Shown here: positions 1,612-50,578 of the stretch, one piece after another
Layout: every line of letters starts with the position of its first letter
How positions within the stretch are numbered: position 1 is the first letter of the stretch
Virus record (IMG/VR): IMGVR_UViG_3300025769_000013
Span: 1 to 50,705 of that record
Length of the DNA: 50,705 nucleotides
Strand: one strand, 5' to 3'
Origin: a virus
Lineage: Duplodnaviria; Caudoviricetes
Position numbers and translations under genes: made by a program
The notes under the pieces: generated by a model
Database searches by the model: none
Told to the model about the DNA's origin: nothing
What the model saw: only the letters and a program-made list of their open reading frames with translations

Positions 1612-1632
1612 GGAAGAAAGGTTTAAGGAACA

Positions 1633-2532: not shown

Positions 2533-2533
2533 G

Positions 2534-4206: not shown

Positions 4207-4514
4207 CCACCCCATCGCTAAGTTCAATTCTGGAGACCATCAGTGACAGGTATGGTGTGCCGGGTGATGTAATCCAGGGCAGGAGTCGCCCGGAGATAGT
4301 AGTGGAGGCTCGTCATGCGTTTTGTTATTTAGCGACGATGCGTGGTTATACGCAGGAGGGGATTGGTGCGTTTATTAATCGTGACCATACGACGATCAGC
4401 ATGGCAATTCGCAGTTTCCGTGACCGGATCGATTGTGATGTGAAGGCTCGCGGGGTGTTTGCGAGAGCAGAGGAAGGATTAAAGGAGGTAGAAGCATTGG
4501 TTGTTTCAGCATAG
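4203..4514 (+). CDS. stand-alone DnaA domain IV (DNA-binding HTH) homolog
   Basis: GRSR..VVEARH..CYL...GIGAFINRDHTTI matches the DnaA C-terminal signature (R.R....ARQ..MYL....IG..FGRDHTTV). Confidence 0.85.
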   Translation: MTTPSLSSILETISDRYGVPGDVIQGRSRPEIVVEARHAFCYLATMRGYTQEGIGAFINRDHTTISMAIRSFRDRIDCDVKARGVFARAEEGLKEVEALVVSA

Positions 4515-8429: not shown

Positions 8430-9092
8430 ATGAGTGAACTGACAGGTGAAGAGTTAAATCAAATCAGAAGACGTAATTTCGGGGAGTATGTGGTGAGTAC
8501 TCCAGGATTAGGCCCCTTCGATGCATTTCGGATGGTAGATGGTGTAGACCAGAACCCGGATATTGCGGACTGGGTGAAGGACATGTTTACCAGCAAGCAG
8601 TTGGGTTTCTTTACTGAAAAGACTCCAGCCAGCGTGGGTAAATATTGGCTCAAGACTAGTGGACCGCCTGTCCTTATGCAGCAAGGCGATTGGTTTGTGA
8701 AGGTCTGCGATGATCCGCTGACCATCAATCGATATCCAGACGCAATTTTCCAAATCATGTTCGGGGCGAAGGAAGTCCTGGCCCCAAATGGAGTGGAAGA
8801 GCCGATGACCCGGGTAATTGAACTCTACTCTCCTTCTGCGGAGGCAGCAACCCTATCTGGAGAGATCGCAGCCTACATGGAAACCTCCTACAAGGACTGG
8901 ATGTCCAAAGCCTACTACCACTACATGGAGATCATCAAGGATATGCTAATCCGTGGTCCAATTCTGGACCGAATTAAGCCCATCCAGGAGTACACGGACA
9001 AACTGGAGGCGAAAGGTGGTCAGATCACTAAGGCAAAATATTTCAAACTTCTGAAGCGGGGCATGCAGATGCTCAATCCAGACGTAAATTGA
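8430..9092 (+). CDS. hypothetical protein upstream of TerL
   Basis: ATG 8430 just after tRNA; LMQQGDWFVK..YPDAIF motif. Confidence 0.75.
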   Translation: MSELTGEELNQIRRRNFGEYVVSTPGLGPFDAFRMVDGVDQNPDIADWVKDMFTSKQLGFFTEKTPASVGKYWLKTSGPPVLMQQGDWFVKVCDDPLTINRYPDAIFQIMFGAKEVLAPNGVEEPMTRVIELYSPSAEAATLSGEIAAYMETSYKDWMSKAYYHYMEIIKDMLIRGPILDRIKPIQEYTDKLEAKGGQITKAKYFKLLKRGMQMLNPDVN

Positions 9093-15660: not shown

Positions 15661-15686
15661 CTATAGTAACTCCAGTAACTTGAATA

Positions 15687-15725
15687 ACCCTGTCTTGAGC
15701 TAATCGCTCAGGGCGGGGTATTTTT
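15687..15725 (+). terminator. intrinsic terminator-like hairpin
   Basis: ACCCTGTCTTGAGC-taatc-GCTCAGGGCGGGGT then ATTTTT. Confidence 0.65.
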
Positions 15726-15739
15726 GTGCTTAACTCAAT

Positions 15740-15907
15740 CGCTGGGTAGTGACCAGCGGAACAGTCAGAGAGCTGTTGGGTGACACCCCAGCGACAGGCG
15801 AGCCAAATGGTCCCGATGGCACGAGGACAGTCCAACCACCGGGTTCAACTGTCGCTCACTGCTAAGGGAAAGCCCGGTGAAAATCGAAACTCAAATTTTC
15901 ACCCAAA
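15740..15907 (+). ncRNA. structured 5' leader of capsid gene (pseudoknot plus alternative hairpin)
   Basis: Pairings 15790-15797/15849-15856, 15837-15845/15871-15879 and 15876-15884/15895-15903. Confidence 0.55.
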
Positions 15908-18092: not shown

Positions 18093-18106
18093 GGAGAAAT
18101 AAGATT

Positions 18107-18427
18107 ATGAGAAACATTAAACAATTTGCCCTGTTAGAGGGAGCAACTACCGCAGCCGCAGGCAGTGCAGTTAGCGTAGAAAACCAAAAGGGTTGGACAT
18201 TCCTTGTGGTAGCAACCGGAGTAACCACTGGAGCCACTGTGGAAATCCAGGCGAAAGTCAACGGCGAGTGGAAGGCGATCCACGAGGAGGCAGTAACTGC
18301 TACCGGGACATCCGACCCAATTCGTGACGAGCATGGTCACTACGAGTTCCTTCGTGCAGAGATCACCTCCTACACGGACGGCACCTATGACGTTGAGGCA
18401 GCAGGCACGAATCTCAAACAGGTGTAA
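18107..18427 (+). CDS. small beta-sandwich virion protein
   Basis: AAGGAG RBS; ATVEIQAK..GEW..FLRAEIT pattern. Confidence 0.7.
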   Translation: MRNIKQFALLEGATTAAAGSAVSVENQKGWTFLVVATGVTTGATVEIQAKVNGEWKAIHEEAVTATGTSDPIRDEHGHYEFLRAEITSYTDGTYDVEAAGTNLKQV

Positions 18428-27759: not shown

Positions 27760-29103
27760 ATGGCAGTTTACGCACAAGCACCAGACGCACAACCCAACCC
27801 GGTTGGCACATTCATTAATGCCTTCTCGACTGGGCGTAACCTATTCCAGCAGAAGCAACGTCAAGAGATGGAGATGCAACGTCTTCAGAGAGCGGAGGAA
27901 CGTGCAGTTCGACAAGAGGAAAGGCAGGCAAAGCTTTGGAGTATGCAGATGAACTCGAAAGAGTTGGAGGTCGAGGCATTGGGGCGTCAGGCTGAAGATG
28001 ATATCGCTCGGAGAGATCGTGCCAGTGGAGATTTACCAAGGGCTTTGCAGCAGTTTGAATTGATTGGATCACAGATAGATGCAATGGAGGCGGCGAATGA
28101 AGAGGATGTCCCTGGATATCGGAGTAAGATTGCGACCATGTATGCAAAGCTTGAAGCAATCAAAGGTCGATACAGTCATGTCCAGGGAGATGCTCGGTGG
28201 GCAACTCAATTTGATGATGCCTACTATCAGGTAACCAATAAGCTTTCTCAGAAAGCAGCACCGTTGGAGGCAGTTCTTCCTGGTGCATTCAATAAGTTCC
28301 GAGAAGAGTTTGCATCACTAAAGGGAATTACTGACCTGAATGAGTATGCAGCAAGAGCAGGTGATATTGAAAAACGGTACGCTTACTTTGCTTCAGATCC
28401 CGTCCGTGGCCAGATGTTTGAGTCGATGGTGGATAAAATGGATGAGAATATCAAATCCATGAGAGAGAACCAATTCAAAGCACAGAAAGAGCAGCAAGAG
28501 CTCGAAGGGCTCAAACACTCAAATCAAAAAAAGGAGTTAGAAGTTGAATCTGCGAAGAAGCAGAAGGTTACTGATAAGAACAATGCAGTTAAAAACCAAC
28601 AGAGGTTACTGCAAGAGCGAGATAAGATTAGGCGTTTACGGAATGATATCCAGAATGCTGATTTTGGTGTAGGCGGAACAGGTACTATTATAGAGGCACT
28701 TAAGACAGCTAAAAGGCTCGGCGGAAGAAGTGCTGGTGCATCAATTGCAGACGAAATTGTTTCCGGTGAGTGGTTAAAGAATGTATCTGCTCTAAAGGGT
28801 GCTTTGTCTGATAAAGAAGGTGCAAGACTCGCAATTGCTGGGTTAAAGAGAACTGATGATAAGGCAGTCTGGTTAAGGAAGCTGAATAACCTCATAGCTG
28901 CATTGGATACTGATCGAGCTTTACTAAGTGAACAGGGGATGTGGTATATCGACGAAAAAGGGAAACCTTTTTCATTATCTGAGGGCACTGAGCAGGAAGA
29001 GATCGGCGATAGTGATGTCAATGATCTGCTCGGAGGTGGAGAATATACACCGCCAGAGGAAGAGCCTGATTTCAGTATTTTTGAAGACCCAGAGGGAAAT
29101 TAA
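27760..29103 (+). CDS. internal virion/ejection protein
   Basis: Coiled-coil; LKGALSDKEGARL motif seen in ejection proteins. Confidence 0.6.
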   Translation: MAVYAQAPDAQPNPVGTFINAFSTGRNLFQQKQRQEMEMQRLQRAEERAVRQEERQAKLWSMQMNSKELEVEALGRQAEDDIARRDRASGDLPRALQQFELIGSQIDAMEAANEEDVPGYRSKIATMYAKLEAIKGRYSHVQGDARWATQFDDAYYQVTNKLSQKAAPLEAVLPGAFNKFREEFASLKGITDLNEYAARAGDIEKRYAYFASDPVRGQMFESMVDKMDENIKSMRENQFKAQKEQQELEGLKHSNQKKELEVESAKKQKVTDKNNAVKNQQRLLQERDKIRRLRNDIQNADFGVGGTGTIIEALKTAKRLGGRSAGASIADEIVSGEWLKNVSALKGALSDKEGARLAIAGLKRTDDKAVWLRKLNNLIAALDTDRALLSEQGMWYIDEKGKPFSLSEGTEQEEIGDSDVNDLLGGGEYTPPEEEPDFSIFEDPEGN

Positions 29104-29107
29104 AGCA

Positions 29108-32100
29108 ATGGGATACACAGACACAGAGAAGCAGGAGATTCTAGCAGGGGTTCCTGAGGATGTGAAAAACCGTGCAAGGCAAGGTGATCGTGATGCAATC
29201 GATTTGATTAAAGGGAAAATTTCGGAATGGAAGTCAGTGACGGAATTACCACAGACACAGACTCAAGCTCCAAAAACTCTATCAGATCGATCTCGTGTTA
29301 TTGATCTGGCCAATCAGGATAACTTTAACTGGGATGAGATCTCTGGTCTAATCGATTCTGGTAAGCTTACGGATGAAGTGGTGGAGTTTTTCGCCAGTGA
29401 AGGGTATGGATTGGAGCAGTCCCTTACTGGTGGTCGGATTATCAATATTGGAAAGAAGGGTAACTATATTTCCAGCCCACAAGGGCGGATGCTCAGTAAG
29501 CTGGGAGAGAGTATTTCTTCTGTTGTTACAATACCCTGGCGTGGCCTTGGAGATAATGATCCAACATCCATGTCTAAGGATGATTTCTACAGGTATCTAT
29601 TAAAGCAACCCAAAGATGATTGGGCTCGGACAGGAGTTGAGAAATTAATCCGGAAGCAACTTCAAGAACGGCAACAAGAGGAACAGAAGGCATATGCACT
29701 TCATGGAGAAGATGCGAATGTCGATATGCACGGAAAAGCCGGAGCTTTAAGCCAAAAGAACGAAATCCCAGCACCAACTCCACAGGATTGGTTCCCAGAA
29801 AAGTTTCTGAAATCAGAAGATGGATCATATTCTGCAAACAAGAGTGAATTAAAACGATACAAATCTGTAATCCTGGAGAATGATCCATATGCGGCATCGC
29901 AGGTGGAACAATTGACCGGACGGGCAGTTGCTGACTTTTATTATGCCAAGAAGGAGGAAGACTCCCAGATGCTCGAACGATTAAATCAGCTTCAAGCAGA
30001 AGGAAGGACGCATCTTCATGACCCTGAGGTTTATGATTGGTTTGTCCGCAGGGGTATGGAGAAGACTCAGGACATCACCTTGGGCCAAGCGATTGACGCT
30101 GGTTGGGATATATTAGGACAAGTTTGGCAAGGGTTGGTTGGCTCGGAAGATGGTTCTGGGATTATCAAGGAATTCGGAGATACAGTATTCAAAGACGATG
30201 CTGCTGAGTATCAAGAGTTTGATGAACTGGTTGGAGAGTCATTCCGGGCATTGGGTTCTGACTACCAACTCCTGAGTGAAAATGCAGGCGGATACTTCTT
30301 GGATCTTATTGAAAAGGCGGATGACAAGGATAGTCCTGAAGCTCAGGAGTTGTATCGAAAAGCGAAATCTGAGCGAAATCGTAAGTTCCAGCTCAGGGCA
30401 TTATCAAACCAAGCAGTTTACGCAAGGGCATCCCAGTCATTGGCATTGAGTCAGGGGAAGAATCCCCAGCAGATGCAGAAGAATATTCTAACTGGTACAT
30501 TTACTTTTGATCCGATGAACTTCGTTCCTATGGGAGGTGTATCAAAAAAAGGTGCAGAGGCGACTCTTAGGGCTGGAGTGAATACACTAAATGATGGTGC
30601 ATTGAAGACTGCGAAGATTGCTGCTGACGAAGCATCGAAAGCTATTTCAGATGCACAAAAGGTGTTGATCGATGCAAAGAAAGCGGGGGATGGTGCTGCG
30701 ATCCAATCTGCCAAAAAGACTTATGATGACGCTTTGAAGCAATACGATAATGCTGAGAAGGCGTTAAAGGAGGCATCGACTAAGGTTGATAATATCTACC
30801 AGGAGTTATTGGAAGCAGGCATGCCAAAACTTTCGGGAAAAGCACTGGAGATGATGGGAGCCGCCGGAGAGTGGATCATGAAGAAAGGCGATGAGGCTTT
30901 AGATAATATCGCAGTTAAGATCGCCCCAGGCATGGCAGATGACACAAGACGATTGCTTGAAGGCGGAGTAAAAGTCGGTGTTGCTGCTACGTTAGGAGGG
31001 GCAAGTCTCGGAACTGTAGGTGCAGTCGTCGGAGGCGTATTGTTAGGAAGTCCAGTAGCAAGAGCACTTGCAAGAGATATGCGGTTAATGGGATCACATA
31101 TTGCACTTGGAGCAAGACTTCAGCCTCTACACCGAGCATTGCAAGCGACCACTGATGCAGGAGGAAATGTAATTTCTCCTGCTTCCTTTGGAACAAGAGT
31201 AGCGGCAAGAGGGTACGAGGCGGCATTTCCCTTTGTAGATCCAGTCGCCAGACTCGGAAGTCGAGTTGTTAAAGGAGTTGCCTCCGTGCAAACGGCGGAG
31301 GCGATGGCAATCCAGTCCGCTATCGGTTATTTGGGATCAGGAGGCACTTGGCAAGGTGCAGTGACTGGAGCGACAATGGGTTTTGGCATGGCAGGGTCTT
31401 TTGGTGCTGCTGGAGCACTTACGCCTTTTGGAAGTCAGAAACAGGTCAATCAATTGGCAGCAACGAATGCTAGGCATTACCGTGATATGTTAAAAGGCAC
31501 TCCTACTGGCGACGAGTTTGCAAAGCTACCATTTGAGGATCAGAAAGCAATAGCATGGGCTATGGGCGGTTTCACAGATACCGCACTCAAGATTATCAAT
31601 GACCCAAATGCACCTGCTGGAGCGTATAACCCAGCAAGGAATGAGATCAACATCAATACAGGGCGAAGAGAGTGGACTAAGGAGTTTGCCAGAAATGTAG
31701 CGAAACATGAACACTCTCATTACATCGCAAGGCATGTTGGTGTCCGTGAGAAAATCCTGAAGACTTTGTTGGCGGATGACTTCTCTCTCCAGTCAGGAAT
31801 CTTTGCTAAGAAGGGGAAAGATGGTAAAGCACTGTATAAGCTAGACCGTGATACTATCCGGGAGATCATGCGTAAAAATACGCAAGGTAAGTCTGTCGAT
31901 GAGGTAATGCAGGAACTTGGATTGTCCAGGGAAGCTGTTGAGTCACTTGGTCAGGTGTTGACTGTCGGTGATCGTCGTAGAAATGACGTTTACATTGAAA
32001 CCACTGATGACTTTAAGGACATCACCAATACATATTTGTCAAAACTGGCGGCATCCAACCCCTTTGCCGCCATTGATTTAATCAACAAAGGTGAGAGGTA

Positions 32101-35100
32101 TGTACAGGAGTACATTGCTGAAGAGATTTTTGCAGAACAGGGGGCAGCAGAAATTGCTAACTACACTCCAGCTTATGCGAAAAGCTTTCGACGAGCTGCA
32201 TGGAGAAAAGATTTGGATGCAGCTCTAAGCAACCCCAGGTTCTCAGGCAGGAAAGCAAGTGTGCTGGGGAGAATTGGTGCATTATTTGGATCTGACCAAA
32301 AGATCAACTCTTCTATATTGGGTGCATTTGACTCCATTCCTGAGTTTAAGGAAATATTTGACGGATACAATCACTCCAGGTCAATGAACCGTGACATGCA
32401 ATTGGCCGAATCCAATGCAGACGGGTTAGCACCTTCGGAGATACTTGATCCAAGAGACTGGGATGCGTCAGTCAGCACTCCATCCACTGAGTCCTTGAAG
32501 GCATGGGTCGCCAACGGGATGCTGGATGTAGATCCAAAGACTGGAGTCCCTAAAGGTATTGAAGTTCAGGCAGATGGAAGCTGGAGAGTCCGAGATCCAA
32601 ACCTTATTCGTCAATCTGCGAAAAATGCCGATAAGGCAGCAAAGGAGTTTGGTAGTGAGATAAAGGATTGGCTCGAAGATAACACGCAGCCTCCGAAGTC
32701 TGCCCAAGAGATTAAAGACTCTATCGACAGTCAGGCTCCCCCTCGATCTCAGGCTGAAAAGGATGCTCTGGATGAAGTGAAGAAGAAGATTGATGGAGGG
32801 GTGAAGCAGGATATCGAGAAGGAGATCCGGGTTCAAAAGTCTCAGTCCGTCCAGGCAACCAAGGACTACCTTGATGATGTTAGTCAAATTATCGACGACA
32901 ACATGGCCGATGATGATGTCGTTGCTCCACGGACTACCATTGATGGCCGAACTATTATTGCAGGCAGATACCTTCCTGAAGACCTACTGACACACCTTGA
33001 AAAGTCTGGGAGGTTTAACCCTCATCAATTACAGAACCTCCGCAATTTGAACCAGTATTTGAAGGATGGACTACATGCCACTCCGATTACGGTGATGTAC
33101 CAATCCACGATGCGAGCTGGGAAAGCAAAGCCTATTGCTGCTGCGGAAAAGACTGTCTATGTAACTGGGTTTGAGGTTACTCAGCAAGGAAACTTTATTT
33201 ACCGCATTTGGAACATTGACAAAATCATGACCAATGGGGCTAAGAAGATGAACTCCAAGATTGGTAAACAGCTTTACAATGGTGATATTGGGCAGTTCAA
33301 TCAGGATGTCTACACTTACTTCAATAACTACGCAAAAGGACTTCCTGGAGCTACTGGATTGAGTGCGACCAAGCGAGATTTCATCCGCAAAGCCATTGGT
33401 CTTGCTGACCCTAACACATCCTCTAACTCTGGAAGGACTCCAAACCCATACGCTTGGAATGTCCAGCCGTTAAAAGACGCAAAGGATACAGCGTTAAACT
33501 CCTATAGACTTGATCGCACAAATTGGATTGACCTTGGGAACCCAAGGATGAAGAAACCGCTGGATGCTCCATTGACATCAAGGGAAGGACCAAATCCAGG
33601 TAGTTACCAGCGGATCAGGGAGAATTACCACCCTGGCGACATAGACTACCTTGACGCAGTGGAGTCTGGTGACATGGAGACTGCTCAGAAGATGGTGGAT
33701 GAGGCTGCGAAGAAGGCGGGATGGACTGTATTGGCATGGCATGGCACTACGCAGGGAGCGTTAAAAGGAAACAAGTTTGATCCCAGTAAACAGCAAAGAG
33801 GCTTCATTACTTCCGCAGGGTATTTCACAACAGATAAGCGAGCGGCAGCAGGGTACGCAACCTCTGGAGGGGCGGGACATTACCCAAAAGGCAGCAAAGA
33901 AAGGAAGGCTCTCGAAGGAGGGGAAAGGCCGTACGACCCTTCACTATATAGAGTTTACTTAAAAGGCGACTGGTGGAAGGGTGATATTGATACAGATGCT
34001 CTAGTTGAGGCAGTGAACACTGTAAACAACAAAGGTATTGCCGATGAGTTTGATTTAGAGTGGACCTCGACATGGGATGATAAGGAAGGGTATGCCAGTC
34101 GTACTGACAGTTACCCAGACGTAGTCTTTGATACTCCAGAGGAATGGTTAAGGGACTTTGTCGAGAAAGGTGAGTTTGATTCGTACGTAGGAAACGATAC
34201 GGATGCTATTGGTTCTGAGTCACCTATTGCATTTGTCTTTTCTAATTGGGAAGTTGGTAAAGAATATCTGAATATAACAAAAAAAGATGGAGTTACTTAC
34301 TTTGATAAGGAAACAACCGAAGTTGATGCGTTTTCCGATAATGCAACTACTTATGTCCCCACGAATCCCAACCAGATCAAATCCGCCGACCCCGTGACTT
34401 ATGATGATGCTGGTAGCGTCATTCCGTTGAGTGAGCGATTCAACCCCAAGAGCGACGATATCCGCTATCACCCAGGCACTGACTCCGACTACCTAAAAGC
34501 AGTGGAGTCTGGAGACACTGAGACTGCTCAGAAGATGGTAGACGAGGCTGCGAAGGCTGCGGGGTATAAAGTTGTTTACCATGGGACGACCAAAAAGGGA
34601 TATACCAATATATGGAAGTCAGGAAAACTGAAACCAGATGCAGAACCAGCAGTTTATGTCACCACCGATTCAGAAGGTGGTGGTTATGGAGATGGCACTG
34701 TTCTCCGAATTGGAATTAAAGAAGGTCGATTGGAAATCGATGATGAATTCCCAGGCGGAAGAGAAGATTATCGTGTGGAGGTGGGTTACCAGGGAGAGAT
34801 TCAAATCAAATCCGCCGACCCCGTCACCTACGATGATGCTGGTAACGTCATCCCGCTCTCCGAGCGATTCAACCCGAAGAGTGACGATATTCGCTTCTTC
34901 CCTGGACTCGATGACGAATCCACCAAACGTGCAGGCTTCAACTTCACTGCAGTCTCCGATCGTATTCCTGTCATCCGTGACCTCTACGCGAAGAAAGACT
35001 GGGAAGGACTCAGGGAGATCAATCGATCACTTATCTCCCACGCCCTGGCTGACATCCCCAGAAGTAAACTCAAAGTAACCACAGAGGATATCCATGGTGT

Positions 35101-37933
35101 CTGGATGGGCGAAACTGAGCCCACCATCCGCGTGGAAGTGGAAGCTGCAGATGACGCCACTCTTGATCAGGCTCGTCGCCGCATCAACGCCCTGGGTGCC
35201 ATCTTCGATCAGGATGAGGTCCACGAATTTCAGAGGGCGAGCATGGGTGACAATGATCAATTTGGGGTAACTCCAGGGGCAGTAGATCAATTCCAACCCT
35301 TCGCCCGTATCTTTGTAGAGGATCCATCCAATCCAGGAAGAAAACTTGACTGGAGCGAACTGGAACCTTATCGTGCTCAAACTGATCTTCTAGGAGCCTC
35401 ATTTGATGGAAACGAAATTTTTGTTTACGGAGTTGATGGTAACGAGAAGGTATTTCTCCAAAATGTAAAAAAACTTGAGCAACTGATCCAAAATGGGAAC
35501 CTTAGCCGAATTCAAAAAACTTCTGAATACGGAGCAATCCGTCTTAGGAGGGCCAGCAGGGATATGGGTAGACCCGAAACCCGAGGATACCAAGAAAGTG
35601 CATTTTCGGATGGTCCAGTATCCCAAGAAGGACAACCAGGCGATAAAGGACTCCGCTCCGACCTCGCCCTCCGAGTCTTAAAGTTTACAGGGGGACGCAT
35701 CCTCTCACCCAAAGACGCCAAGCGATCCCTCTTCGTAGGGAAAGATCTCACTCCCGAGCAGGTCGAGCTCCAGATCAAGATCGCTGACCACTACGAACAG
35801 GCTCCAGTCAATGACATGGACCGCCCGATTGTGCAACGTGCTTACCGAGCTCTCCAGAAAGAACTCGTGGATCAATATAAGGCAATCGTCGAAGGGATGG
35901 AGATCATTGGAGTCCCCTGGAGACGCAAAAAGGACGGAGAGTGGATTGAGGGTGATATCTACCCAAGTTCCAAGGAAGCAGTCCGAGATATCCGCCAGAA
36001 CAATCGGATGGAATACCTCCTAACCGACCCCGATGCATTTGGACCCCAGGGAGAAGACTTCTCAGGACACCCACTCCTGGAAGACTCTGGAATTGAAGTC
36101 ATGCTCCAGGATGCGGAAACCGGAGAGCTCCGGCCCTACTCCGCCAATTACAACGATATTCTCCGAGTCGTCCATGACGTCATCGCTCACGGACTTTATA
36201 CTGACCAATTTGGCCCTATCGGAGAAGAGGGAGCCTACCGCACTCACGCCGTTGTCACTCAGGATCCATTTGCCATTTGGACATTGGCTAACGAGACACG
36301 GAATCAAAACTCCTGGGTCAACTACGGTCCCCAGGTACGTGGCAAAGATGGCCAGCTTATCAAGAAAGGTGAACCCGGGTTCCGGTCGATCCCTGAACGC
36401 GAATTTGCTGAACAGAAAGCCATTCTCCTTCCAGTCGATGACCTCCTGACCGGAGTCCCTGAAATCGATCAGAAAGTTGAATCCCTCAGGGCAATGCTTA
36501 CTCCAGAGGAAGCAATGGGCAGTTTGGCTGAATCAAGTCAGGTCCGATACTACCCTGGCACTGATGATGATGCTATTAGGACTTCAAGTAAGAATATTCT
36601 TACGAATCAATCCTCAAAAGGAACAGTAAATGAAATTGGAGAGGCAGCTACAATCTTCAAGGAGTCCTTCATTGAGCAATTTGGTGAAGTAATGACTGCA
36701 AAAGATATGGGGGATGATCAAATAAAGTGGCTGGCAGATCAATTAGTGCAGGAAGCTTTAGTAGAATTCGATAAAGTTGATAATGCAGTAGATTGGTACA
36801 CAACTGCTGTAGAAGGTATGCTTAAGAAAGCTGAAACTTTGTTTCCAGAAATCTCTGATCGTGGAATTGATTATCATACATTCCTAGCTGCAGTTGCGAT
36901 CACATCCCAGAATCTTGCGGTACGCGACAACCTTGCATATGCAGTCGGTCAGTACGAGTACCGCAAGAAGAATGGTGTCTTTAATTACAAGGAAGATGTT
37001 GGAAGTAAGGCTGAAGCGATTCGTGGAAATTTAAAACTTTTCGATAGACTTATCAAAGAGCTAGGAGAAGAGGATTATATTCAATTTACCCAGAGAGATT
37101 TCACAATAAAAGAGTTATCAAGCGACCTATCAGAAGTCTTGGGCAAGAAAGTAAATATAGCAGGCTATCAATCAGACTCAGTAAAAGGATCTGCGGCATT
37201 CGGTCCAAAGATTGGCCAGGGATTTCTCCAGAATCTCTTGGGCAACTATGACCCTGTAACTGTAGATCTCTGGTTGCGAAGAACATTTGGTCGCTTAACT
37301 GGCGATGCCATTCGGAAAGAATTAACTGTCCAGGATATTGGAAGGTTAGTCTTTGCGTTTAAAAATAGAAGTAATCGAGGTAAGTTTAAATTACCGGAAG
37401 ACATCAATCTGCCAGATTACCTGAAAGGACTTCGACTTGAGGGCTCAGTCACTAAAAGAGGTTCTCAGCATAAGATCACTGGATCCGCATTTAGTCGTCT
37501 ATTTAACCCCAAAACAAAAGAAGGTGCTGCAAGACAAGAAGAACTTCGCCAATTAGGAAAAGTATTAAATTCTGCATGGGAAAGCACGTATAAACGGGAG
37601 GTTCCAAAGCTTGGAAAAGAAGAAGTAGGCAAACGAAAGCCATATTGGGCTTATATTGGAAGCACCTTGAACGGGAAATTTAAACCAGTTGACGCCCCAT
37701 CAAACTTGGAACGAAAGGTTATTACACAAGCGTTTGAGATTGTTCGGAAGCGTCTCAAAGAGGAACATGATCTTGACTTCACTAACGCAGATCTTCAAGC
37801 TCTCCTTTGGTATCCAGAAAAGGATATATGGGGTCACCTCACTGGCGAAAGTGCCGACTCCTTAAAGGAAGACTATTCAACTGCAATGGAGGCAATTCTC
37901 AATGAGCGAAACAGAGCCACAGGAACTGAATGA
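29108..37933 (+). CDS. giant injected polyvalent protein (~2941 aa): ejection core, zincin peptidase, two ADP-ribosyltransferase-like domains, further effector domains
   Basis: HEHSH + EEIFAE; WHGT..YFT / YHGT..YVT with QIKSAD ends; HDVIAH domain; C-terminal GPKIG..FL.NL..VTVDLW..LQALLW. Confidence 0.85.
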   Translation: MGYTDTEKQEILAGVPEDVKNRARQGDRDAIDLIKGKISEWKSVTELPQTQTQAPKTLSDRSRVIDLANQDNFNWDEISGLIDSGKLTDEVVEFFASEGYGLEQSLTGGRIINIGKKGNYISSPQGRMLSKLGESISSVVTIPWRGLGDNDPTSMSKDDFYRYLLKQPKDDWARTGVEKLIRKQLQERQQEEQKAYALHGEDANVDMHGKAGALSQKNEIPAPTPQDWFPEKFLKSEDGSYSANKSELKRYKSVILENDPYAASQVEQLTGRAVADFYYAKKEEDSQMLERLNQLQAEGRTHLHDPEVYDWFVRRGMEKTQDITLGQAIDAGWDILGQVWQGLVGSEDGSGIIKEFGDTVFKDDAAEYQEFDELVGESFRALGSDYQLLSENAGGYFLDLIEKADDKDSPEAQELYRKAKSERNRKFQLRALSNQAVYARASQSLALSQGKNPQQMQKNILTGTFTFDPMNFVPMGGVSKKGAEATLRAGVNTLNDGALKTAKIAADEASKAISDAQKVLIDAKKAGDGAAIQSAKKTYDDALKQYDNAEKALKEASTKVDNIYQELLEAGMPKLSGKALEMMGAAGEWIMKKGDEALDNIAVKIAPGMADDTRRLLEGGVKVGVAATLGGASLGTVGAVVGGVLLGSPVARALARDMRLMGSHIALGARLQPLHRALQATTDAGGNVISPASFGTRVAARGYEAAFPFVDPVARLGSRVVKGVASVQTAEAMAIQSAIGYLGSGGTWQGAVTGATMGFGMAGSFGAAGALTPFGSQKQVNQLAATNARHYRDMLKGTPTGDEFAKLPFEDQKAIAWAMGGFTDTALKIINDPNAPAGAYNPARNEININTGRREWTKEFARNVAKHEHSHYIARHVGVREKILKTLLADDFSLQSGIFAKKGKDGKALYKLDRDTIREIMRKNTQGKSVDEVMQELGLSREAVESLGQVLTVGDRRRNDVYIETTDDFKDITNTYLSKLAASNPFAAIDLINKGERYVQEYIAEEIFAEQGAAEIANYTPAYAKSFRRAAWRKDLDAALSNPRFSGRKASVLGRIGALFGSDQKINSSILGAFDSIPEFKEIFDGYNHSRSMNRDMQLAESNADGLAPSEILDPRDWDASVSTPSTESLKAWVANGMLDVDPKTGVPKGIEVQADGSWRVRDPNLIRQSAKNADKAAKEFGSEIKDWLEDNTQPPKSAQEIKDSIDSQAPPRSQAEKDALDEVKKKIDGGVKQDIEKEIRVQKSQSVQATKDYLDDVSQIIDDNMADDDVVAPRTTIDGRTIIAGRYLPEDLLTHLEKSGRFNPHQLQNLRNLNQYLKDGLHATPITVMYQSTMRAGKAKPIAAAEKTVYVTGFEVTQQGNFIYRIWNIDKIMTNGAKKMNSKIGKQLYNGDIGQFNQDVYTYFNNYAKGLPGATGLSATKRDFIRKAIGLADPNTSSNSGRTPNPYAWNVQPLKDAKDTALNSYRLDRTNWIDLGNPRMKKPLDAPLTSREGPNPGSYQRIRENYHPGDIDYLDAVESGDMETAQKMVDEAAKKAGWTVLAWHGTTQGALKGNKFDPSKQQRGFITSAGYFTTDKRAAAGYATSGGAGHYPKGSKERKALEGGERPYDPSLYRVYLKGDWWKGDIDTDALVEAVNTVNNKGIADEFDLEWTSTWDDKEGYASRTDSYPDVVFDTPEEWLRDFVEKGEFDSYVGNDTDAIGSESPIAFVFSNWEVGKEYLNITKKDGVTYFDKETTEVDAFSDNATTYVPTNPNQIKSADPVTYDDAGSVIPLSERFNPKSDDIRYHPGTDSDYLKAVESGDTETAQKMVDEAAKAAGYKVVYHGTTKKGYTNIWKSGKLKPDAEPAVYVTTDSEGGGYGDGTVLRIGIKEGRLEIDDEFPGGREDYRVEVGYQGEIQIKSADPVTYDDAGNVIPLSERFNPKSDDIRFFPGLDDESTKRAGFNFTAVSDRIPVIRDLYAKKDWEGLREINRSLISHALADIPRSKLKVTTEDIHGVWMGETEPTIRVEVEAADDATLDQARRRINALGAIFDQDEVHEFQRASMGDNDQFGVTPGAVDQFQPFARIFVEDPSNPGRKLDWSELEPYRAQTDLLGASFDGNEIFVYGVDGNEKVFLQNVKKLEQLIQNGNLSRIQKTSEYGAIRLRRASRDMGRPETRGYQESAFSDGPVSQEGQPGDKGLRSDLALRVLKFTGGRILSPKDAKRSLFVGKDLTPEQVELQIKIADHYEQAPVNDMDRPIVQRAYRALQKELVDQYKAIVEGMEIIGVPWRRKKDGEWIEGDIYPSSKEAVRDIRQNNRMEYLLTDPDAFGPQGEDFSGHPLLEDSGIEVMLQDAETGELRPYSANYNDILRVVHDVIAHGLYTDQFGPIGEEGAYRTHAVVTQDPFAIWTLANETRNQNSWVNYGPQVRGKDGQLIKKGEPGFRSIPEREFAEQKAILLPVDDLLTGVPEIDQKVESLRAMLTPEEAMGSLAESSQVRYYPGTDDDAIRTSSKNILTNQSSKGTVNEIGEAATIFKESFIEQFGEVMTAKDMGDDQIKWLADQLVQEALVEFDKVDNAVDWYTTAVEGMLKKAETLFPEISDRGIDYHTFLAAVAITSQNLAVRDNLAYAVGQYEYRKKNGVFNYKEDVGSKAEAIRGNLKLFDRLIKELGEEDYIQFTQRDFTIKELSSDLSEVLGKKVNIAGYQSDSVKGSAAFGPKIGQGFLQNLLGNYDPVTVDLWLRRTFGRLTGDAIRKELTVQDIGRLVFAFKNRSNRGKFKLPEDINLPDYLKGLRLEGSVTKRGSQHKITGSAFSRLFNPKTKEGAARQEELRQLGKVLNSAWESTYKREVPKLGKEEVGKRKPYWAYIGSTLNGKFKPVDAPSNLERKVITQAFEIVRKRLKEEHDLDFTNADLQALLWYPEKDIWGHLTGESADSLKEDYSTAMEAILNERNRATGTE
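33644..34564 (+). repeat. intragenic repeat A (33644-33721 and 34487-34564)
   Basis: DYL.AVESGD.ETAQKMVDEAAK.AG; 12 mismatches in 78 nt by manual count. Confidence 0.9.
34373..34906 (+). repeat. intragenic repeat B (34373-34477 and 34802-34906)
   Basis: QIKSADPVTYDDAG.VIPLSERFNPKSDDIR..PG twice, mostly synonymous differences. Confidence 0.9.
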
Positions 37934-38048
37934 AGTACTGCTTGAAATGACTGATGAGCAGTTAGGTCAATTTGCATCCAAGATTAAAGAGAAACTCGCA
38001 AAGGACCGCGAAAATAATCAGGAATCAAAAAAGATTCCTAAGTACTAA
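37902..38048 (+). CDS. 48-aa protein overlapping the end of the giant gene
   Basis: GGAGG at 37888-37892, ATG 37902, MSETEPQELNEVLLEMTDEQLGQFASKIKEKL... Confidence 0.55.
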   Translation: MSETEPQELNEVLLEMTDEQLGQFASKIKEKLAKDRENNQESKKIPKY

Positions 38049-38078
38049 AAAGCCCCGACTCGGAGTGAGTCGAGGCCA
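38047..38078 (-). terminator. terminator between convergent genes
   Basis: On -: GGCCTCGACTC-actcc-GAGTCGGGGC-TTTTT. Confidence 0.7.
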
Positions 38079-38107
38079 TTACGTCTAACTAGACGTCTAA
38101 ATCATGT

Positions 38108-43270: not shown

Positions 43271-44760
43271 TTCTTCCCTAATCTCGTATCAATAAAAGCC
43301 GATGCCTCAGTAAAAGTAGCCATTCCGGGGTCAGGGTATTTGAACCTCTCCAACATCCTTACTTGTTTTGGGCTCGCCATTCCTTCTCGGCGGCGGGTAA
43401 AAAGTAGATCCAGGATTTTGCTGACATGACCTCGGTTGGAGATCCCGATGTCATCCATTCCGAACTTTTCCAAAGTCGCAATCTGGTTGGCGGTAGGTGG
43501 CTCCATCTCCCACATTGTTTCTGGTTCGTAGGTCGCCAAGTCTGGAAGGTTCAGTTTGAGGCAGAAGTCCAGAGCATCCACGGTCCTGGCACTTCGTCTA
43601 CGTTGAGCCTTGATTTCAGCTTCCAATGCTTCCATCCGCTCTTCCTCGGCCAAACTTTCAGCATCCAGGAGGTCTACCTCTTCTTCTTCCTGGAATTGAT
43701 TATTGATGAACTCCGCCTCTTCAGGTTTCGAAGCTACCAGTCTGGCCGGAGTGATAATTTTCAGCTTGTCGGTCAAGTAGAGTGGGTCCAGCAGAAGCAG
43801 GTTCTCTTTCCCTTCTGCAATCCTGGTGCCACGTCCCACCATTTGCTGGTATAGACTCAGGCTTTTGGTCGGTCTCAGGATGTACACACAATCGGTTGCC
43901 GGGTGATCCCATCCAGTAGTAAGAAGACTGGCGTTGCAGATGACTTGGGCTTCACCCTGCTCGTATTCATCCAGTGCAGTTCGATCCACTCCATCCACAT
44001 GCACTGCGTAGAGCCCTGCACGTTGGCAGGCATCCCGGAATTTTTTTGAAATTTCAATAAGTGGAAGGAAGCAGACGGTTTTGCGGTCACTGGCATGCTT
44101 CGCCAATAGATGTGCTGCTTCTTCCAAGTGGGGTTCAATCGCTTCGCCAAGGTCTTCTTCCCGGTAGTCTCCATTTTTCGTGCGGACTCCAGTTAGATCA
44201 ATCGGTACTGGTACAGACTTGATCGTTATTCTGGATAGGTACCCTTCCCGGATCAGACGAACCATCCCTACCTCGAACGATATCTTCTCGAAGAAGTCGC
44301 CCAATTGTTTGCGGTCTTTCCTCCAGGGCGTGGCAGTCAACCCAAGTACTTTTGCAGATTTGAAATAATTGAGGACCTTCTGGCACTGGTCGCCCAGACA
44401 ATTTCGGTGGGCCTCGTCTACAATCACCAGAGAGAAGTGTTTAGGATCCCATTTCCAGAGTCGCCTTACCATCGATTGAGTGGTGCCAACCACAGTGGAA
44501 CTGTCTGGATGGGCGTGGTTTTCGCCCTGCTCGACTGACACCTTGCGTCCGGTGTACTGATGGAACTTGTCTGCGTTCTGTTCCACCAATTTTGTAGCAT
44601 CGGCCAGGAATAGTGTATTTCCTTTGGCTACATTCATCAGCTCAGATGCAAGGATTGTCTTTCCAGCCCCTGTCCCGGCGACTCCGAGAACACGTTCATG
44701 CTCCCGGAAGTCGCGGATCACGGACTGAATTGCTTCAGTCTGGTAAGGGCGGAGTTGCAT
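43267..44760 (-). CDS. superfamily 2 DEAH helicase
   Basis: LRPYQ, TGAGKT, DEAH, TATP, QMVGRGTR. Confidence 0.93.
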   Translation of the reverse strand: MQLRPYQTEAIQSVIRDFREHERVLGVAGTGAGKTILASELMNVAKGNTLFLADATKLVEQNADKFHQYTGRKVSVEQGENHAHPDSSTVVGTTQSMVRRLWKWDPKHFSLVIVDEAHRNCLGDQCQKVLNYFKSAKVLGLTATPWRKDRKQLGDFFEKISFEVGMVRLIREGYLSRITIKSVPVPIDLTGVRTKNGDYREEDLGEAIEPHLEEAAHLLAKHASDRKTVCFLPLIEISKKFRDACQRAGLYAVHVDGVDRTALDEYEQGEAQVICNASLLTTGWDHPATDCVYILRPTKSLSLYQQMVGRGTRIAEGKENLLLLDPLYLTDKLKIITPARLVASKPEEAEFINNQFQEEEEVDLLDAESLAEEERMEALEAEIKAQRRRSARTVDALDFCLKLNLPDLATYEPETMWEMEPPTANQIATLEKFGMDDIGISNRGHVSKILDLLFTRRREGMASPKQVRMLERFKYPDPGMATFTEASAFIDTRLGKK

Positions 44761-46997: not shown

Positions 46998-47253
46998 TGC
47001 CGATTTCCATTAGTTGGGTTGCGATTTTATCCACCGCATCACACTGAAGATCGCGGAGGGTTGAATAAGGGATCCCGGTCAAACGACTGAGTTCCCTAAG
47101 TGAAAAGGTTCTTCCTGGGTGTACATTTGCTGCCCACTTGGAGAGGCGAATAAGACGTGTCTCCACTGGTCCTTCATCAAAAGGTTCCGGTAGCATCGTC
47201 TGCACCATCGGGTGAGACCTCTGGGATGCCTTTCTCTGAAGTCGGGTGTTCAT
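46960..47253 (-). CDS. HTH DNA-binding protein
   Basis: FSLRELSRLTGIPYSTLRDL. Confidence 0.7.
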   Translation of the reverse strand: MNTRLQRKASQRSHPMVQTMLPEPFDEGPVETRLIRLSKWAANVHPGRTFSLRELSRLTGIPYSTLRDLQCDAVDKIATQLMEIGNEFINRRTETGT

Positions 47254-47468
47254 GCGTCGAGCACCTCCGCATTGTTCCAAGGTTGCTTCCGGGCAAGGAG
47301 GACCATGTCACTCCTCAGGAAGCGGACGGTCTTCTGTTTATTCCTGCCTACAGTCGGCAGGTAATACCTTTGGATAAATCCAGCGTCCGCCCAATTACGG
47401 ACTGTATTCTTAGCGACTTGGAAATGGTCTGCCACTTGTTGTGGCGTCACATAGATGGAGTCCTTCAT
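47250..47468 (-). CDS. excisionase/MerR-like HTH protein
   Basis: VTPQQVADHFQVAKNTVRNWADAG...VRF. Confidence 0.8.
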   Translation of the reverse strand: MKDSIYVTPQQVADHFQVAKNTVRNWADAGFIQRYYLPTVGRNKQKTVRFLRSDMVLLARKQPWNNAEVLDA

Positions 47469-47935
47469 GTCATGGTCCCTTCCGTCTTGTACCACCGTGG
47501 TGGTTGGGTTGGTTTGAGTTGCACTATCTTGACCCGGATGCCGGGTTGGTCGCCCCAGGCTTTTTCCACCAGTAGTTGGCAGATTTGGTTGTCGTCCTCC
47601 CAAAACCCCAGGTCTGTCATGCAGTCCTCCAGTGTCTTGGGAAAGTTGGTGCAGTCAGGCTTGGTGATTTTCCAGAACCACCCGGTTGCTTTGTTCTTTT
47701 TGGTCTCGGACTTCCGCCATGGATAGACGTAGGCGATCTGAAGCTGGAGAGGTCCGGTCAGTGGACTTTCTGGAGCGTACTCAGAAAGCAGACTCCAGAA
47801 CATTTGCTGGATCCGCTTCCCTTCGCTCGACTTCATCTTACCGACGAATTGCTTCCCAGTCTTACGGTTTTTTAGGACCCGAAGGGCGGACTGGTGGGTG
47901 CCAGTCGGCGGATTTACTTTGAGAGTGAACTCCAT
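47465..47935 (-). CDS. rusA: RusA-like Holliday junction resolvase
   Basis: TKPDCTNFPKTLEDCM....WEDDNQI. Confidence 0.88.
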   Translation of the reverse strand: MEFTLKVNPPTGTHQSALRVLKNRKTGKQFVGKMKSSEGKRIQQMFWSLLSEYAPESPLTGPLQLQIAYVYPWRKSETKKNKATGWFWKITKPDCTNFPKTLEDCMTDLGFWEDDNQICQLLVEKAWGDQPGIRVKIVQLKPTQPPRWYKTEGTMT

Positions 47936-47953
47936 GATTTTTCTGAAATTGAA

Positions 47954-48039
47954 TGGCACCGGGAGCAGCGTGGGCTGCGGGGCTTTATTGCTTTGGAGAG
48001 ACAAAGATGATAAGAAAACTCTCCGTTACTCCCGGTGCC
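47954..48039 (-). ncRNA. candidate small RNA with long acceptor-like stem and 3' CCA
   Basis: GGCACCGGGAGTAACG/CGCTGCTCCCGGTGCC-A stem; inner GGAGAG/CTCTCC hairpin. Confidence 0.6.
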
Positions 48040-48118
48040 TGCCATGTCACTATACCTGCACGGTGGCTAAATTGTGTATATACGTTAAGGTGGACTGCCT
48101 GATCTTTGATGCAGGGAT

Positions 48119-48409
48119 CTAAAAGTTCAGGTGACTGAGTTTGCGGGTGGAGGTGGTTTCGATCTTTTCGAGAAGTTCATCACCTTCGCCTTCGTGGATC
48201 TTGGCACCTTCGAGAAGGGCCTGGGCGTCTTTCTTGGCCTGACGGCGAGCTGAGACGAACGTCTTAGGCACTACCGTCACCACACCATTCTCGGTGCGGA
48301 TGTGCTTCGGACGATGACGTCTGACGCGGTCCTGGTAGACCGCTTTGTTTCCCGCCAGTAGACGGGTCTGTAATTCTCTCCGTTGCCGGAGACGATTGGA
48401 TTTGCTCAT
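48119..48409 (-). CDS. Arg-rich basic early protein
   Basis: MSKSNRLRQRRELQTRLLAGN N-terminus. Confidence 0.7.
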   Translation of the reverse strand: MSKSNRLRQRRELQTRLLAGNKAVYQDRVRRHRPKHIRTENGVVTVVPKTFVSARRQAKKDAQALLEGAKIHEGEGDELLEKIETTSTRKLSHLNF

Positions 48410-48428
48410 TGGGTTATTGGGTTTGGGT

Positions 48429-48527
48429 TTACTTCAAAAGTTCTTGCAGAATGACGATAACGATGGTCAGGAATGGGGTCGCAATCGCTAGGGTCACTGT
48501 GGCGTGAAAGTAGATTGGGTCTTTCAT
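48429..48527 (-). CDS. 32-aa membrane peptide
   Basis: MKDPIYFHATVTLAIATPFLTIVIVILQELLK; ATGA overlap with upstream gene. Confidence 0.55.
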   Translation of the reverse strand: MKDPIYFHATVTLAIATPFLTIVIVILQELLK

Positions 48528-48664
48528 CGTTTGCGGCTCCATCTATCTGCGGCTTGATCTGATCTCCAGCTACGGCCTTTACCGTAGAGGTGACGTTGGA
48601 TCTCCGCTACACGTTCCTGGTAGTCCAGGAGCTCGTTGATCTTCTTTTGCTCTTCCTGGGTCAT
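48524..48664 (-). CDS. hypothetical protein
   Basis: AGGAG RBS, ATGA overlap. Confidence 0.6.
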   Translation of the reverse strand: MTQEEQKKINELLDYQERVAEIQRHLYGKGRSWRSDQAADRWSRKR

Positions 48665-49107
48665 GACTGAGTCTCCTGAGCGAAGTGAGCTTTGAAGTGG
48701 GGCAGTGCTTCCTGGCATTTCCTTACACCGTAGGTCCTACCAATAGTGTCTTTGAGGAGTTGGCGAAATGACTGAATCTCTAAAGGGACATTTGATTCTA
48801 ATTCGCCCTCCACTTCTTTTGGGACTTCAGTACCTTGGAGTTGTATCCAGTATTGCCCATTGGATCCTTTGGGCTTTCCAATAATGAAATCTCCTTTTGC
48901 CGCTATGTCGGCAAGCATCGCCTTAATCTTTGGGCGACTCAACTGCCTGCTCTTCAGGTCGGCAGGGATTAAGCTTTTCATCCCCCATGCTGAGGTCTTG
49001 AAAAACAACTCATCAGGATGTTGTTCTTTTAGATTCGCATAGACCTTCCCCAGGTCTGCTTTGAATGTCATTAGTTCCTGATTAGTATATATTCCCTGTT
49101 CACTCAT
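48661..49107 (-). CDS. hypothetical protein
   Basis: 148-aa ORF, second gene of early operon. Confidence 0.75.
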   Translation of the reverse strand: MSEQGIYTNQELMTFKADLGKVYANLKEQHPDELFFKTSAWGMKSLIPADLKSRQLSRPKIKAMLADIAAKGDFIIGKPKGSNGQYWIQLQGTEVPKEVEGELESNVPLEIQSFRQLLKDTIGRTYGVRKCQEALPHFKAHFAQETQS

Positions 49108-49108
49108 A

Positions 49109-49321
49109 TTACTTTCCTAACTTGCTGCTCTTTCTTGGTTTCCGGTTTTTTGCCTTCTCTCTACGATCAAGACTGGAAGTTACTAGTTCCTGCATAAATT
49201 GAGATCTGGAGATGCCCAAATCAAAACAAAGGTCATTCAGTTTTGTTATCGTCTCAGGTTTAAATGTCACTGATATGGAACGAGACTGAGTGAACGGATC
49301 TTTTAATATTTTCCTTGGCAT
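49109..49321 (-). CDS. ribbon-helix-helix (CopG/Arc-like) regulator, Cro position
   Basis: SISVTFKPETITKLNDLCFDLGISRSQFMQELV. Confidence 0.85.
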   Translation of the reverse strand: MPRKILKDPFTQSRSISVTFKPETITKLNDLCFDLGISRSQFMQELVTSSLDRREKAKNRKPRKSSKLGK

Positions 49322-49500
49322 GTTTAAAAAGCTGGCAAGTTAGCTTTCTAACATCAAGCACTTTTTTAGAAAAATGAAAAATGGTTCATTTTGCAGCTTG
49401 CATTCCGCATGAATACAGTGCATATTGGAGTGCCCTGTTCGATAATCCCCTACTCAAAATGAGGCGTCTTGACTCCTTTTTCGTAACAGGAAACCTAGTT

Positions 49501-50088
49501 ATGACCGAAGAATTAAAAAATAAATCAGGCAGTAGAAATACTTCCGTAAGTCTTGAGAATGAAGTTTTTGATTGGCTCGATACCCAGGGTGAGAAGTATG
49601 GGATCAATCGATCCAAACTCATAAATGATATTATCAGAGAGAGGATTCGTCGCCGACCATCGGGTTTGAATCATGATATTGAGTGGATACTTGATAACAA
49701 AGTTAACTACCACAAGTTGGCATTTGGAACCGACTGTAAGTTTCATTACAAGTTAGAAGACTGCCCGGAGTATGGTGATTTCTCCACTGCATATTCGATC
49801 ACCCTGGATGATGAACCTCCACTTGCGTATGTTCTCGCAGCAGAAGACACCAGGGAGACCCTGAAGGATCTATTCGCTGACTCCGTAATGTTCTACATGG
49901 AGAAGGTTACACCAATAATCCTGGTGATCCCCTATCGAATGGATCCAAGTCATAAGATTTGGGAGTTACTCAGTAAGCATGAGGGAATCATTGTCACCAC
50001 CCCAGAGGACCTGGTTGATCATATTGAAGTAATTATGTCTGGATTGCCAGAGGATTGGAACCACCCCCGCGTCCCCCTGGATCTCTAA
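49501..50088 (+). CDS. ribbon-helix-helix regulator with extra C-terminal domain, repressor position
   Basis: NTSVSLENEVFDWLDTQGEKYGINRSKLINDII; divergent from 49109-49321. Confidence 0.8.
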   Translation: MTEELKNKSGSRNTSVSLENEVFDWLDTQGEKYGINRSKLINDIIRERIRRRPSGLNHDIEWILDNKVNYHKLAFGTDCKFHYKLEDCPEYGDFSTAYSITLDDEPPLAYVLAAEDTRETLKDLFADSVMFYMEKVTPIILVIPYRMDPSHKIWELLSKHEGIIVTTPEDLVDHIEVIMSGLPEDWNHPRVPLDL

Positions 50089-50578
50089 GGGTCTCATCTA
50101 CGCCTGATCGAGTGCATGAAATGCCCAGATGACCTGTGTGCAGGTCATGCGGTCATGCACCCGCGATCGCCCATACATGCGAGGGTTTCTAAATTTCGAA
50201 AGGGGCTCAGTTCCTTCGCACACCATGCCTATACATCATCCATGACGCCCCTGGATGAGTGCATAGTACGGTCATAGTCCGAATGCGTGCGAGATCATGT
50301 ATGCCTACATGCATGCGTATATATGATGCACACCCCATCATCCCCAGGATCACCATGCATCAGGTACATAGGCAGATGATGATCGCGTCATGCATCCCCG
50401 CCCCTTTCCTTCGAGAGAACTACGTTCTCTCTCGAAAAGGAAGCAAGAAGCGGACAAATCCACCAGCCTAACGGCGTGGATTGTCCTACAAAGGGAAGGA
50501 AAGGAAGTTTCTTGATCGGGTTTTGATCCATTTCCAAAATAGAAATAGTTCGAGTCCCAGAACCCCAGTAGTCGAAGA

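Follow-up and report, generated by a model that had tools for sequence, protein, structure and literature searches.

The DNA analysed here (hereafter the window, meaning the whole stretch of 50,705 bp) is an IMG/VR record of a complete virus with direct terminal repeats, found in 11 sequencing runs labelled as freshwater metagenome DNA. Its leftward early operon, read on the (-) strand, runs from a ribbon-helix-helix Cro-like gene through a 148-aa ORF and a 96-aa ORF to the structured element that is the subject of this report, and then to the gene for the RusA Holliday-junction resolvase, past which come an HTH_17 gene, a Sak4-like AAA_24 protein, DUF669, an SF2 helicase and an AAA_25 protein. 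The element sits in the 184-nt gap between the 96-aa ORF and RusA (Table 1), on the strand of the operon and of all neighbouring genes; a long early transcript must cross it unless terminated upstream. A first-pass annotation of this locus had placed it inside an early operon, and rightly: (-) genes flank it on both sides, from the Cro-like gene to AAA_25. Further along, 8-9 kb from the element, lie a tyrosine integrase-like gene and a small serine recombinase gene.

The 96-aa ORF has no family match, no relative among viral contigs and no solved structural relative. Its translation is strongly basic and arginine-rich in the N-terminal third and acidic in the C-terminal part, and the arginine-rich N-terminus may resemble N-type RNA-binding motifs such as that of lambda N. 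The ORF was rejected as a known antiterminator, having neither a family nor a solved relative. A Shine-Dalgarno motif accompanies 15 of the 48 crude gene calls of this phage, and RusA is without one. The best phage matches to RusA are from Akkermansia phages (41%), and the Atlas cluster nearest to the helicase also points to Verrucomicrobiota, which as a host phylum is only a lead.

Some other features of the window deserve a brief record. A 908-aa ORF at 9089-11815 (+) contains Hint (Hom_end_hint, 1.7e-15) and LAGLIDADG homing-endonuclease domains, and its 83%-identical homologue in contig L005 has only 588 aa; judged by these domains and lengths, the 908-aa ORF appears to be a virion or packaging gene that carries an intein. 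Positions 28928-37933 (+) are taken up by one 3001-aa ORF, for whose C-terminal part the third lineage described below has a homologue at 55% identity. Between the divergent ribbon-helix-helix genes lies a palindrome, GTTAG-N4-CTAAC (about 49330-49352 (-) in the window), which is kept in the second lineage described below (about 1585-1600 in its contig L007) and is probably an operator of the switch.

Table 1. Positions of the element, its parts and its neighbours in the window, with the other contigs that carry the element.
Feature	Position	Strand	Remarks
Whole element, 86-nt three-way junction (P1, P2, P3)	47954..48039	-	predicted fold; covariance-model matches in homologues
P1 5' strand, GGCACCGGGA	48030..48039	-	extendable by G-C and U.G to 12 bp
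P2 hairpin, GGAGAG/CUCUCC	47995..48024	-	18-nt loop at 48018..48001, 15 pyrimidines
Linker J2/3, AAAGCAAUAAAGCCCC	47979..47994	-	AAAG right after P2 invariant in alignments
P3 hairpin, GCAGC-CCAC-GCUGC	47965..47978	-	abuts P1 3' strand
P1 3' strand, UCCCGGUGCC	47955..47964	-	minimum-free-energy fold
Conserved upstream flank	48040..48118	-	palindrome GTATATAC at 48076-48083; promoter-like site
A/U-rich leader without Shine-Dalgarno motif	47936..47953	-	between P1 and RusA AUG
RusA Holliday-junction resolvase gene	47465..47935	-	Pfam RusA 5.2e-23; PHROG 140 7.3e-29; always directly 3' of the element
96-aa ORF, no recognised family	48119..48409	-	upstream of the element; missing from homologous contigs
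Divergent ribbon-helix-helix pair, right end of window: 235-aa gene	49381..50088	+	
Divergent ribbon-helix-helix pair, right end of window: 70-aa gene	49321..49109	-	
Viral contigs with the element			IMGVR_UViG_3300021364_003113, IMGVR_UViG_3300025769_001248, IMGVR_UViG_3300025889_016841
Metagenome contig with the element			Ga0070746_10000385

Read on the (-) strand from 48039 to 47954, the element is GGCACCGGGAG...CUCCCGGUGCCA. Its predicted fold has an energy of -38.9 kcal/mol, compared with -20.4 +/- 3.2 for 200 shuffles (z -5.85), none of which folded as well, and in a scan of 90-nt windows taken every 10 nt on both strands the locus ranked third in stability among 10,124. Other very stable 90-nt folds (-38 to -45 kcal/mol) were seen at 44646-44735 (-), at 50396-50485 (-), at 15671-15760 (+), which is the gap before a 436-aa ORF, and at 37996-38085 (-), just past the 3001-aa ORF. 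The (+) strand opposite the element folds as well as the element itself (-41.0 kcal/mol, z -4.64), and thus fold energy cannot choose the strand.

The first-pass annotation had described a 16-bp closing stem with one mismatch, an inner GGAGAG/CUCUCC hairpin and an A-rich linker, and all three are there. A repeat search returns inverted-repeat arms of 16 nt at 47955-47970 and 48024-48039 that are 88% complementary, amounting to 14 Watson-Crick pairs, one U.G and one A.C. In the minimum-free-energy fold the closing stem (P1) uses the outer 10 pairs only, and the inner part goes into a separate 5-bp hairpin, GCAGC-CCAC-GCUGC (P3). The inner hairpin (P2) carries the loop UUUUCUUAUCAUCUUUGU and is followed by the A-rich linker, AAAGCAAUAAAG.

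A homologous element was found 5' of RusA in four other contigs, three viral and one metagenomic, whose RusA proteins are 78-79% identical to that of the window. These four contigs carry two near-identical variants, and with the window there are five contigs, three distinct sequences and two lineages. A covariance model built from the window alone finds the homologues with E values of 2.5e-08 and 3.5e-06. Their predicted folds have the same architecture: a P1 of 12 bp, a P2 of GGAGG/CCUCC with a 19-nt loop containing 17 pyrimidines, and a 3' hairpin adjoining P1, which is of unrelated sequence (GGGA-UUGAGU-UCCC) and is longer in one contig (L003). The gene upstream of the element differs, being the 96-aa ORF in the window and the counterpart of the 148-aa ORF in the homologues, which indicates a conserved block that begins at the stop codon and accompanies RusA.

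A third lineage of five contigs has a RusA 76% identical to that of the window but no gap and no element. Here RusA and the stop codon of its upstream gene overlap, and RusA is therefore translationally coupled to that gene. The 47-kb record of this lineage, rated 93% complete, has no match to the element model anywhere, and none of the genes that fill the corresponding slot (about 3.6 kb) resembles the gap of the window. The gap was also rejected as a decayed gene remnant, since tblastn gave no likeness to those slot genes. Between the 148-aa gene and RusA lies a hypervariable slot (48119-48718 in the window, 657-4238 in the third-lineage contig L058), holding one or two small ORFs in the window, the element alone in the second lineage and about 3.6 kb of genes in the third, which is also without the HTH_17 gene after RusA.

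Wider searches added little. More distant relatives, with helicases 50-61% identical, have neither such a RusA nor a model match. Three DNA patterns run over IMG/VR viral contigs returned the same three known contigs each time and one chance match, a giant-virus record (L053) with 15.8 bits and E 1.5. Scans based on RusA covered viral contigs, metagenome contigs (2 loci) and genome contigs (1 distant locus), and gave the second lineage, the third lineage without the element, and distant RusA genes without it. Among relatives of Sak4 (20 loci) and of the helicase (62 loci), searched with models R1 and R2, there was no further match below E 0.087; phage GenBank records gave no DNA match, and none of the four whole related records (G001-G004) matched the model. 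The element is present once per genome, with no second copy in the window. Contigs from four DNA runs covering 47400-48500 were identical phage, second-lineage pieces or other diverged contigs only, and showed no natural variation inside the element. A literature search found no published description of the motif, which is not proof of absence. As far as these searches reach, the element is narrowly distributed and optional among relatives.

The comparison of the two lineages provides evidence that the structure itself is maintained. All 15 comparable pairs of P1 and P2 are kept as standard pairs in every sequence and none is broken, a count to be read with the alignment having been fitted to the structure and with two lineages representing one divergence, in which each compensatory change is a single event. 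Three pairs changed on both sides: two of the 10 pairs of P1 (C-G to U-A and A-U to G-C) and one of P2 (A-U to G-C). RNAalifold independently predicts the same helices. In a simulation that assumed independent substitution at 0.2-0.4 per site, keeping all pairs together with at least three double changes had P <= 5e-05, and 18 of 500 column shuffles reached the observed covariation score. The first-pass annotation had proposed a covariance model from related phages as a check; here homologues were found, with 15/15 pairs kept and 3 compensatory changes.

Conservation at the level of sequence is uneven. Of 171 aligned intergenic columns, 115 (67%) are the same in the window and the second lineage. 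Four-fold degenerate sites are near saturation, the identical ones being 21 of 56 for RusA and 66 of 175 for the helicase (38%). The segment that forms the element is identical at 58 of 80 positions (z 8.0 against shuffles), and the upstream flank, 76-79 nt from the stop codon to P1, at 46 of 74 (z 3.6 against shuffles). The leader from P1 to the AUG is identical at 11 of 17, which is not significant, as 91 of 500 shuffles are as good. Within the P2 loop about 8 of 19 positions differ between lineages, nearly all of them by C/U exchange, and the loop stays pyrimidine-rich while its sequence drifts. The element is thus structured, unusually stable and under purifying selection. Most likely it acts as RNA on the (-) strand, because this is the strand of the operon, because a U.G pair able to extend P1 exists on this strand only, and because nested helices covary and the loop drifts by C/U exchange while remaining a pyrimidine tract.

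The conserved flank contains a sigma-70-like site, TACACA-18-TATAGT (48078..48049, (-)), with 9 nt between the end of its second hexamer and P1. Promoter-like calls in the region are at chance frequency (4 found, 4.2 expected), and the promoter scanner made no call at the homologous place in the second-lineage contig L007. The ATAGTG block lies a constant 9-10 nt from P1 in both lineages, whereas the spacing from palindrome GTATATAC to ATAGTG differs by 4 nt. That constant distance makes a transcription start at P1 possible, as a prediction that includes a promoter call at chance level. The palindrome, like the ATAGTG block, is conserved; it is unique in the window, and it was rejected as a repeated operator.

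On the other side of the element, the RusA AUG follows P1 by 19 nt in the window (counting A47954) and by 18 nt in the homologues. Neither in the window nor in L007 was a terminator-like site called at the element, and AUUCAAUUUC and GCCUCACUUU, the tails that follow P1, make poor U-tracts. An intrinsic terminator was rejected, as the GC-rich stem has no immediate U-tract in the window or in L007. Two coding explanations were also discarded: a sense ORF of 43 aa from 48045, whose ATG is missing in the homologues, and a TTG-started, in-frame extension of RusA from 48004, since the RusA ORF of L007 starts only at ATG.

C4, CI and DicF are RNAs cut out of longer early transcripts. The CI RNA of P4 is grouped with C4 as an embedded phage antisense RNA, and DicF and others are intergenic sRNAs of lambdoid prophages. 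The first-pass annotation had called the element a C4-like RNA, and this interpretation, which includes RNase P processing, is partly supported. What stands is a real structured element of the right shape on the strand of an early operon. C4 of P1/P7 (Rfam C4) is likewise a small structured RNA in a phage early/immunity operon, with three helices, P1-P3, of which the closing stem joins both ends and the other two are hairpin loops, as described in PMC5320573. Three helices with a closing stem appear when the window and both homologue variants are folded, an agreement that is a likeness of shape only.

What does not stand is kinship, the CCA end and the target. Infernal, which the first-pass annotation had suggested running against Rfam, gave no match on the element and none to C4: a cmscan run with all 4,227 families of Rfam over 47000-49500, with E values up to 10 allowed, returned nothing on the element, and its two matches (PhotoRC-I and SNORD26) both lie off it. 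The PhotoRC-I match, at 48700-48740 (+) and antisense to the 148-aa ORF, is below threshold (23 bits, gathering score 45, E 0.0051) and is probably chance. At gathering thresholds Rfam found nothing in the window and a tRNA alone in L007 (11288-11358 (-), 33.2 bits, gathering score 29), where it adjoins the homologue of the integrase-like gene and could be a phage tRNA or what is left of an attachment site. The 3' end GGUGCCA is present in the window as claimed, but CCA is absent from the homologues, which read GUGCCGCCUCA; the 3' CCA determinant of C4, for an RNase P cut at the 5' end of P1, is therefore not kept across lineages. No complementary site in the same operon was found to be common to both lineages. 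The element also has one long pyrimidine-tract loop, its other loop being just 4-6 nt, unlike C4. Similarly, the complement of the P2 loop does read as a ribosome-binding site and start (GGAGAG-N6-AUG) in the window, as had been claimed, whereas the homologues read GGAGGACAGAAAGUAGG.

Other known classes fit less well. A tRNA or tmRNA was rejected (ARAGORN found 0 genes in the window, and no Rfam tRNA or tmRNA matched there), and so was a self-cleaving three-way-junction ribozyme, for which Rfam gave nothing up to E 10; the strands at the junction, UAAC and AAAG..., lack the hammerhead core. The leader of ompA and the early RNase III sites of T7 are simple or internally looped stabilising or processing hairpins. 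Like them, the element is a stable structure in a polycistronic message directly ahead of a ribosome-binding region; unlike them, it is a three-way junction with conserved loop composition. The putL and putR RNAs of HK022 are also cis-encoded, structured, similar in size and placed in an early operon past the first gene or genes. PMC9378689 describes put as a V-shaped RNA of about 70 nt made of two stem-loops, which binds RNA polymerase, suppresses termination and has no closing helix, in contrast to the element, a comparison made by description only. The prophage sRNAs PasA and PasC lie near rusA in E. coli, and PasA is reported to be cut from a longer transcript (bioRxiv 10.64898/2026.05.13.724894). 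They share with the element an intergenic position near a RusA gene and presence in only some related phages. The same preprint gives them a terminator hairpin with poly-U and a range of Escherichia and Shigella only, whereas the element has no U-tract and belongs to a freshwater phage. An Hfq-type sRNA of the Pas family was rejected for the same reason, as the 3' terminator hairpin and poly-U are not found and no U-tract follows P1.

I also scanned the phage for sites that could pair with the P2 loop, using every 40-nt window on both strands (n=20,266; mean -6.8, sd 3.1 kcal/mol). The best site other than the loop itself (-21.4 kcal/mol) is inside the 3001-aa ORF. A site of -18.8 kcal/mol at 48200..48171 is in the 96-aa ORF of the same transcript, which the homologues lack. 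The match at 18093-18114 that had been noticed as the start of a virion gene does fall in the start region of an ORF (18107..18427) and is the best of 49 start regions, at -17.5 kcal/mol. As a target, however, it is unsupported: pairing as strong is seen in 1.5% of random coding windows. Taken together, start regions show no enrichment for pairing with the loop (Mann-Whitney p 0.86). The best sites for the homologue loops fall in other genes, and no site common to the lineages was found in a comparison that covers the early-region side, as the homologous contigs stop short of the virion genes. Target prediction in the phage, another check that had been proposed, thus gave no target that stands out.

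What, then, does the element do? A discrete sRNA acting in trans is possible, though on the doubtful side. It would be a primary transcript starting at P1 or a piece cut from the early transcript, C4-like in logic and not by kinship, and purine-rich (Shine-Dalgarno-like) stretches in phage or host mRNAs would be the pairing partners of its P2 loop. A closing stem with two hairpins is the architecture of C4 (PMC5320573), a -10-like hexamer lies at a constant distance of 9-10 nt before P1 in both lineages, and C/U exchanges in the loop would preserve pairing with G-rich targets. The element is also optional among close relatives, like accessory sRNA genes, and the Pas prophage sRNAs provide a precedent near rusA in E. 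coli (bioRxiv 10.64898/2026.05.13.724894). However, there is no outstanding target in the phage, given that 1.5% of random windows pair as well as the best start region; the homologue loops pair best within other genes, and about 8 of 19 loop positions differ; and no U-tract terminator past P1, conserved CCA or Rfam match was found. Transcriptional punctuation between immediate-early and delayed-early genes, by a factor-dependent or atypical terminator, an attenuator or a put-like cis antitermination RNA, is decidedly unlikely. The position after the first early genes and before the recombination and replication genes, the GC-rich stem of 10-12 bp and the arginine-rich N-terminus of the upstream 96-aa ORF would all suit it, but no terminator-like site was called in either lineage, the U-tracts after P1 are poor, the 96-aa ORF is missing from the homologous contigs, no downstream terminator was identified as a target of antitermination, and put itself is a V-shaped pair of stem-loops without a closing helix (PMC9378689).

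The element could instead matter as DNA, as a site for replication, recombination, protein binding or single-stranded structure, or as the remnant of a mobile element, with no role as RNA. A hairpin in single-stranded DNA would also show compensatory changes in its inverted repeat, both strands fold equally well, the element adjoins the recombination and replication module, and the conserved flank holds a unique 8-bp palindrome. I nevertheless regard this as quite unlikely. The arms lie 53-64 nt apart and the nested P2 also covaries, which is not the pattern of a dimer-binding palindrome; the integrase and serine recombinase genes are 8-9 kb away; and the repeat search found no iterons or direct repeats nearby. 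Iterons and a MITE were both rejected, as none was found in that search, and a MITE is further argued against by the element being single-copy in each genome and absent from the related 47-kb record. A product of the (+) strand, either a cis-antisense RNA across the start of RusA or a small protein, is very improbable. In its favour are the (+) fold at z -4.64, an antisense promoter-like site in L007 (TTTACA-17-CATTAT) inside the first codons of RusA, and antisense ORFs of 74, 61 and 63 aa that span the element. Yet the promoter-like call in L007 is at chance (1 found, 2.2 expected) and the site is degraded in the window to TTTACT-17-GATTTT; the antisense ORFs are identical at only 21 of 43 positions with two gaps, and their starts and ends differ; what similarity there is stems from the part opposite the conserved N-terminus of RusA and decays across the element; and GGAGAG-N6-AUG is not kept in the homologues. 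An antisense small protein was rejected, the ORFs not being conserved as proteins across the element.

The reading I favour, tentatively and without calling it probable, is that the element is an undescribed RNA domain, located on the sense (-) strand immediately 5' of RusA, that folds on its own into a three-way junction and acts in cis as a leader or intercistronic domain. It is preferred because few genes of this phage have a Shine-Dalgarno motif and RusA has none, because the spacing of 18-19 nt to the RusA start is constant, and because RusA is translationally coupled to its upstream gene where the element is missing. In such a role the element would serve as the leader, or as intercistronic punctuation, of the transcript for RusA, recombination and replication. 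Its 5' end could be made by a weak internal promoter, with the -10-like hexamer 9-10 nt before P1, or by a cut in the long transcript. Pairing of the very 5' end in P1 would then protect the downstream mRNA, and the pyrimidine tract, exposed at the edge of the ribosome footprint, might be a landing site for the ribosome (through S1) or for a regulator. The start of RusA would in this way be independent where there is no translational coupling to an upstream gene. Known 5' stabilisers are simple hairpins. The three-way junction of the element and its conserved loop composition suggest specific recognition, which would fit a trans-acting RNA or a protein operator equally well.

A bolder version of the argument is that, in a host with little use of Shine-Dalgarno motifs, the element represents a new class of phage regulatory RNA, whose pyrimidine tract captures a host factor or purine-rich leaders; I consider this unlikely. 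The tract, flanked by a CCUCC-type strand, might capture S1, RNA polymerase, Rho or purine-rich mRNA leaders, and a promoter-proximal RNA of this kind could switch expression from immediate-early genes to recombination and replication genes, as C4 or put do, while being unrelated to both.

Going by sequence models and the literature search, the element is undescribed as a motif and unrelated to Rfam families. With few sequences it is a candidate motif, and not yet a surprising one. Structured RNAs of phage early operons (C4, CI, put, nut) have been described almost exclusively from phages of enteric bacteria, and the element offers an unrelated candidate example from an uncultured freshwater phage with few Shine-Dalgarno genes. 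If it controls the RusA, recombination and replication block, it would be a compact and testable case of RNA-based timing or mRNA protection.
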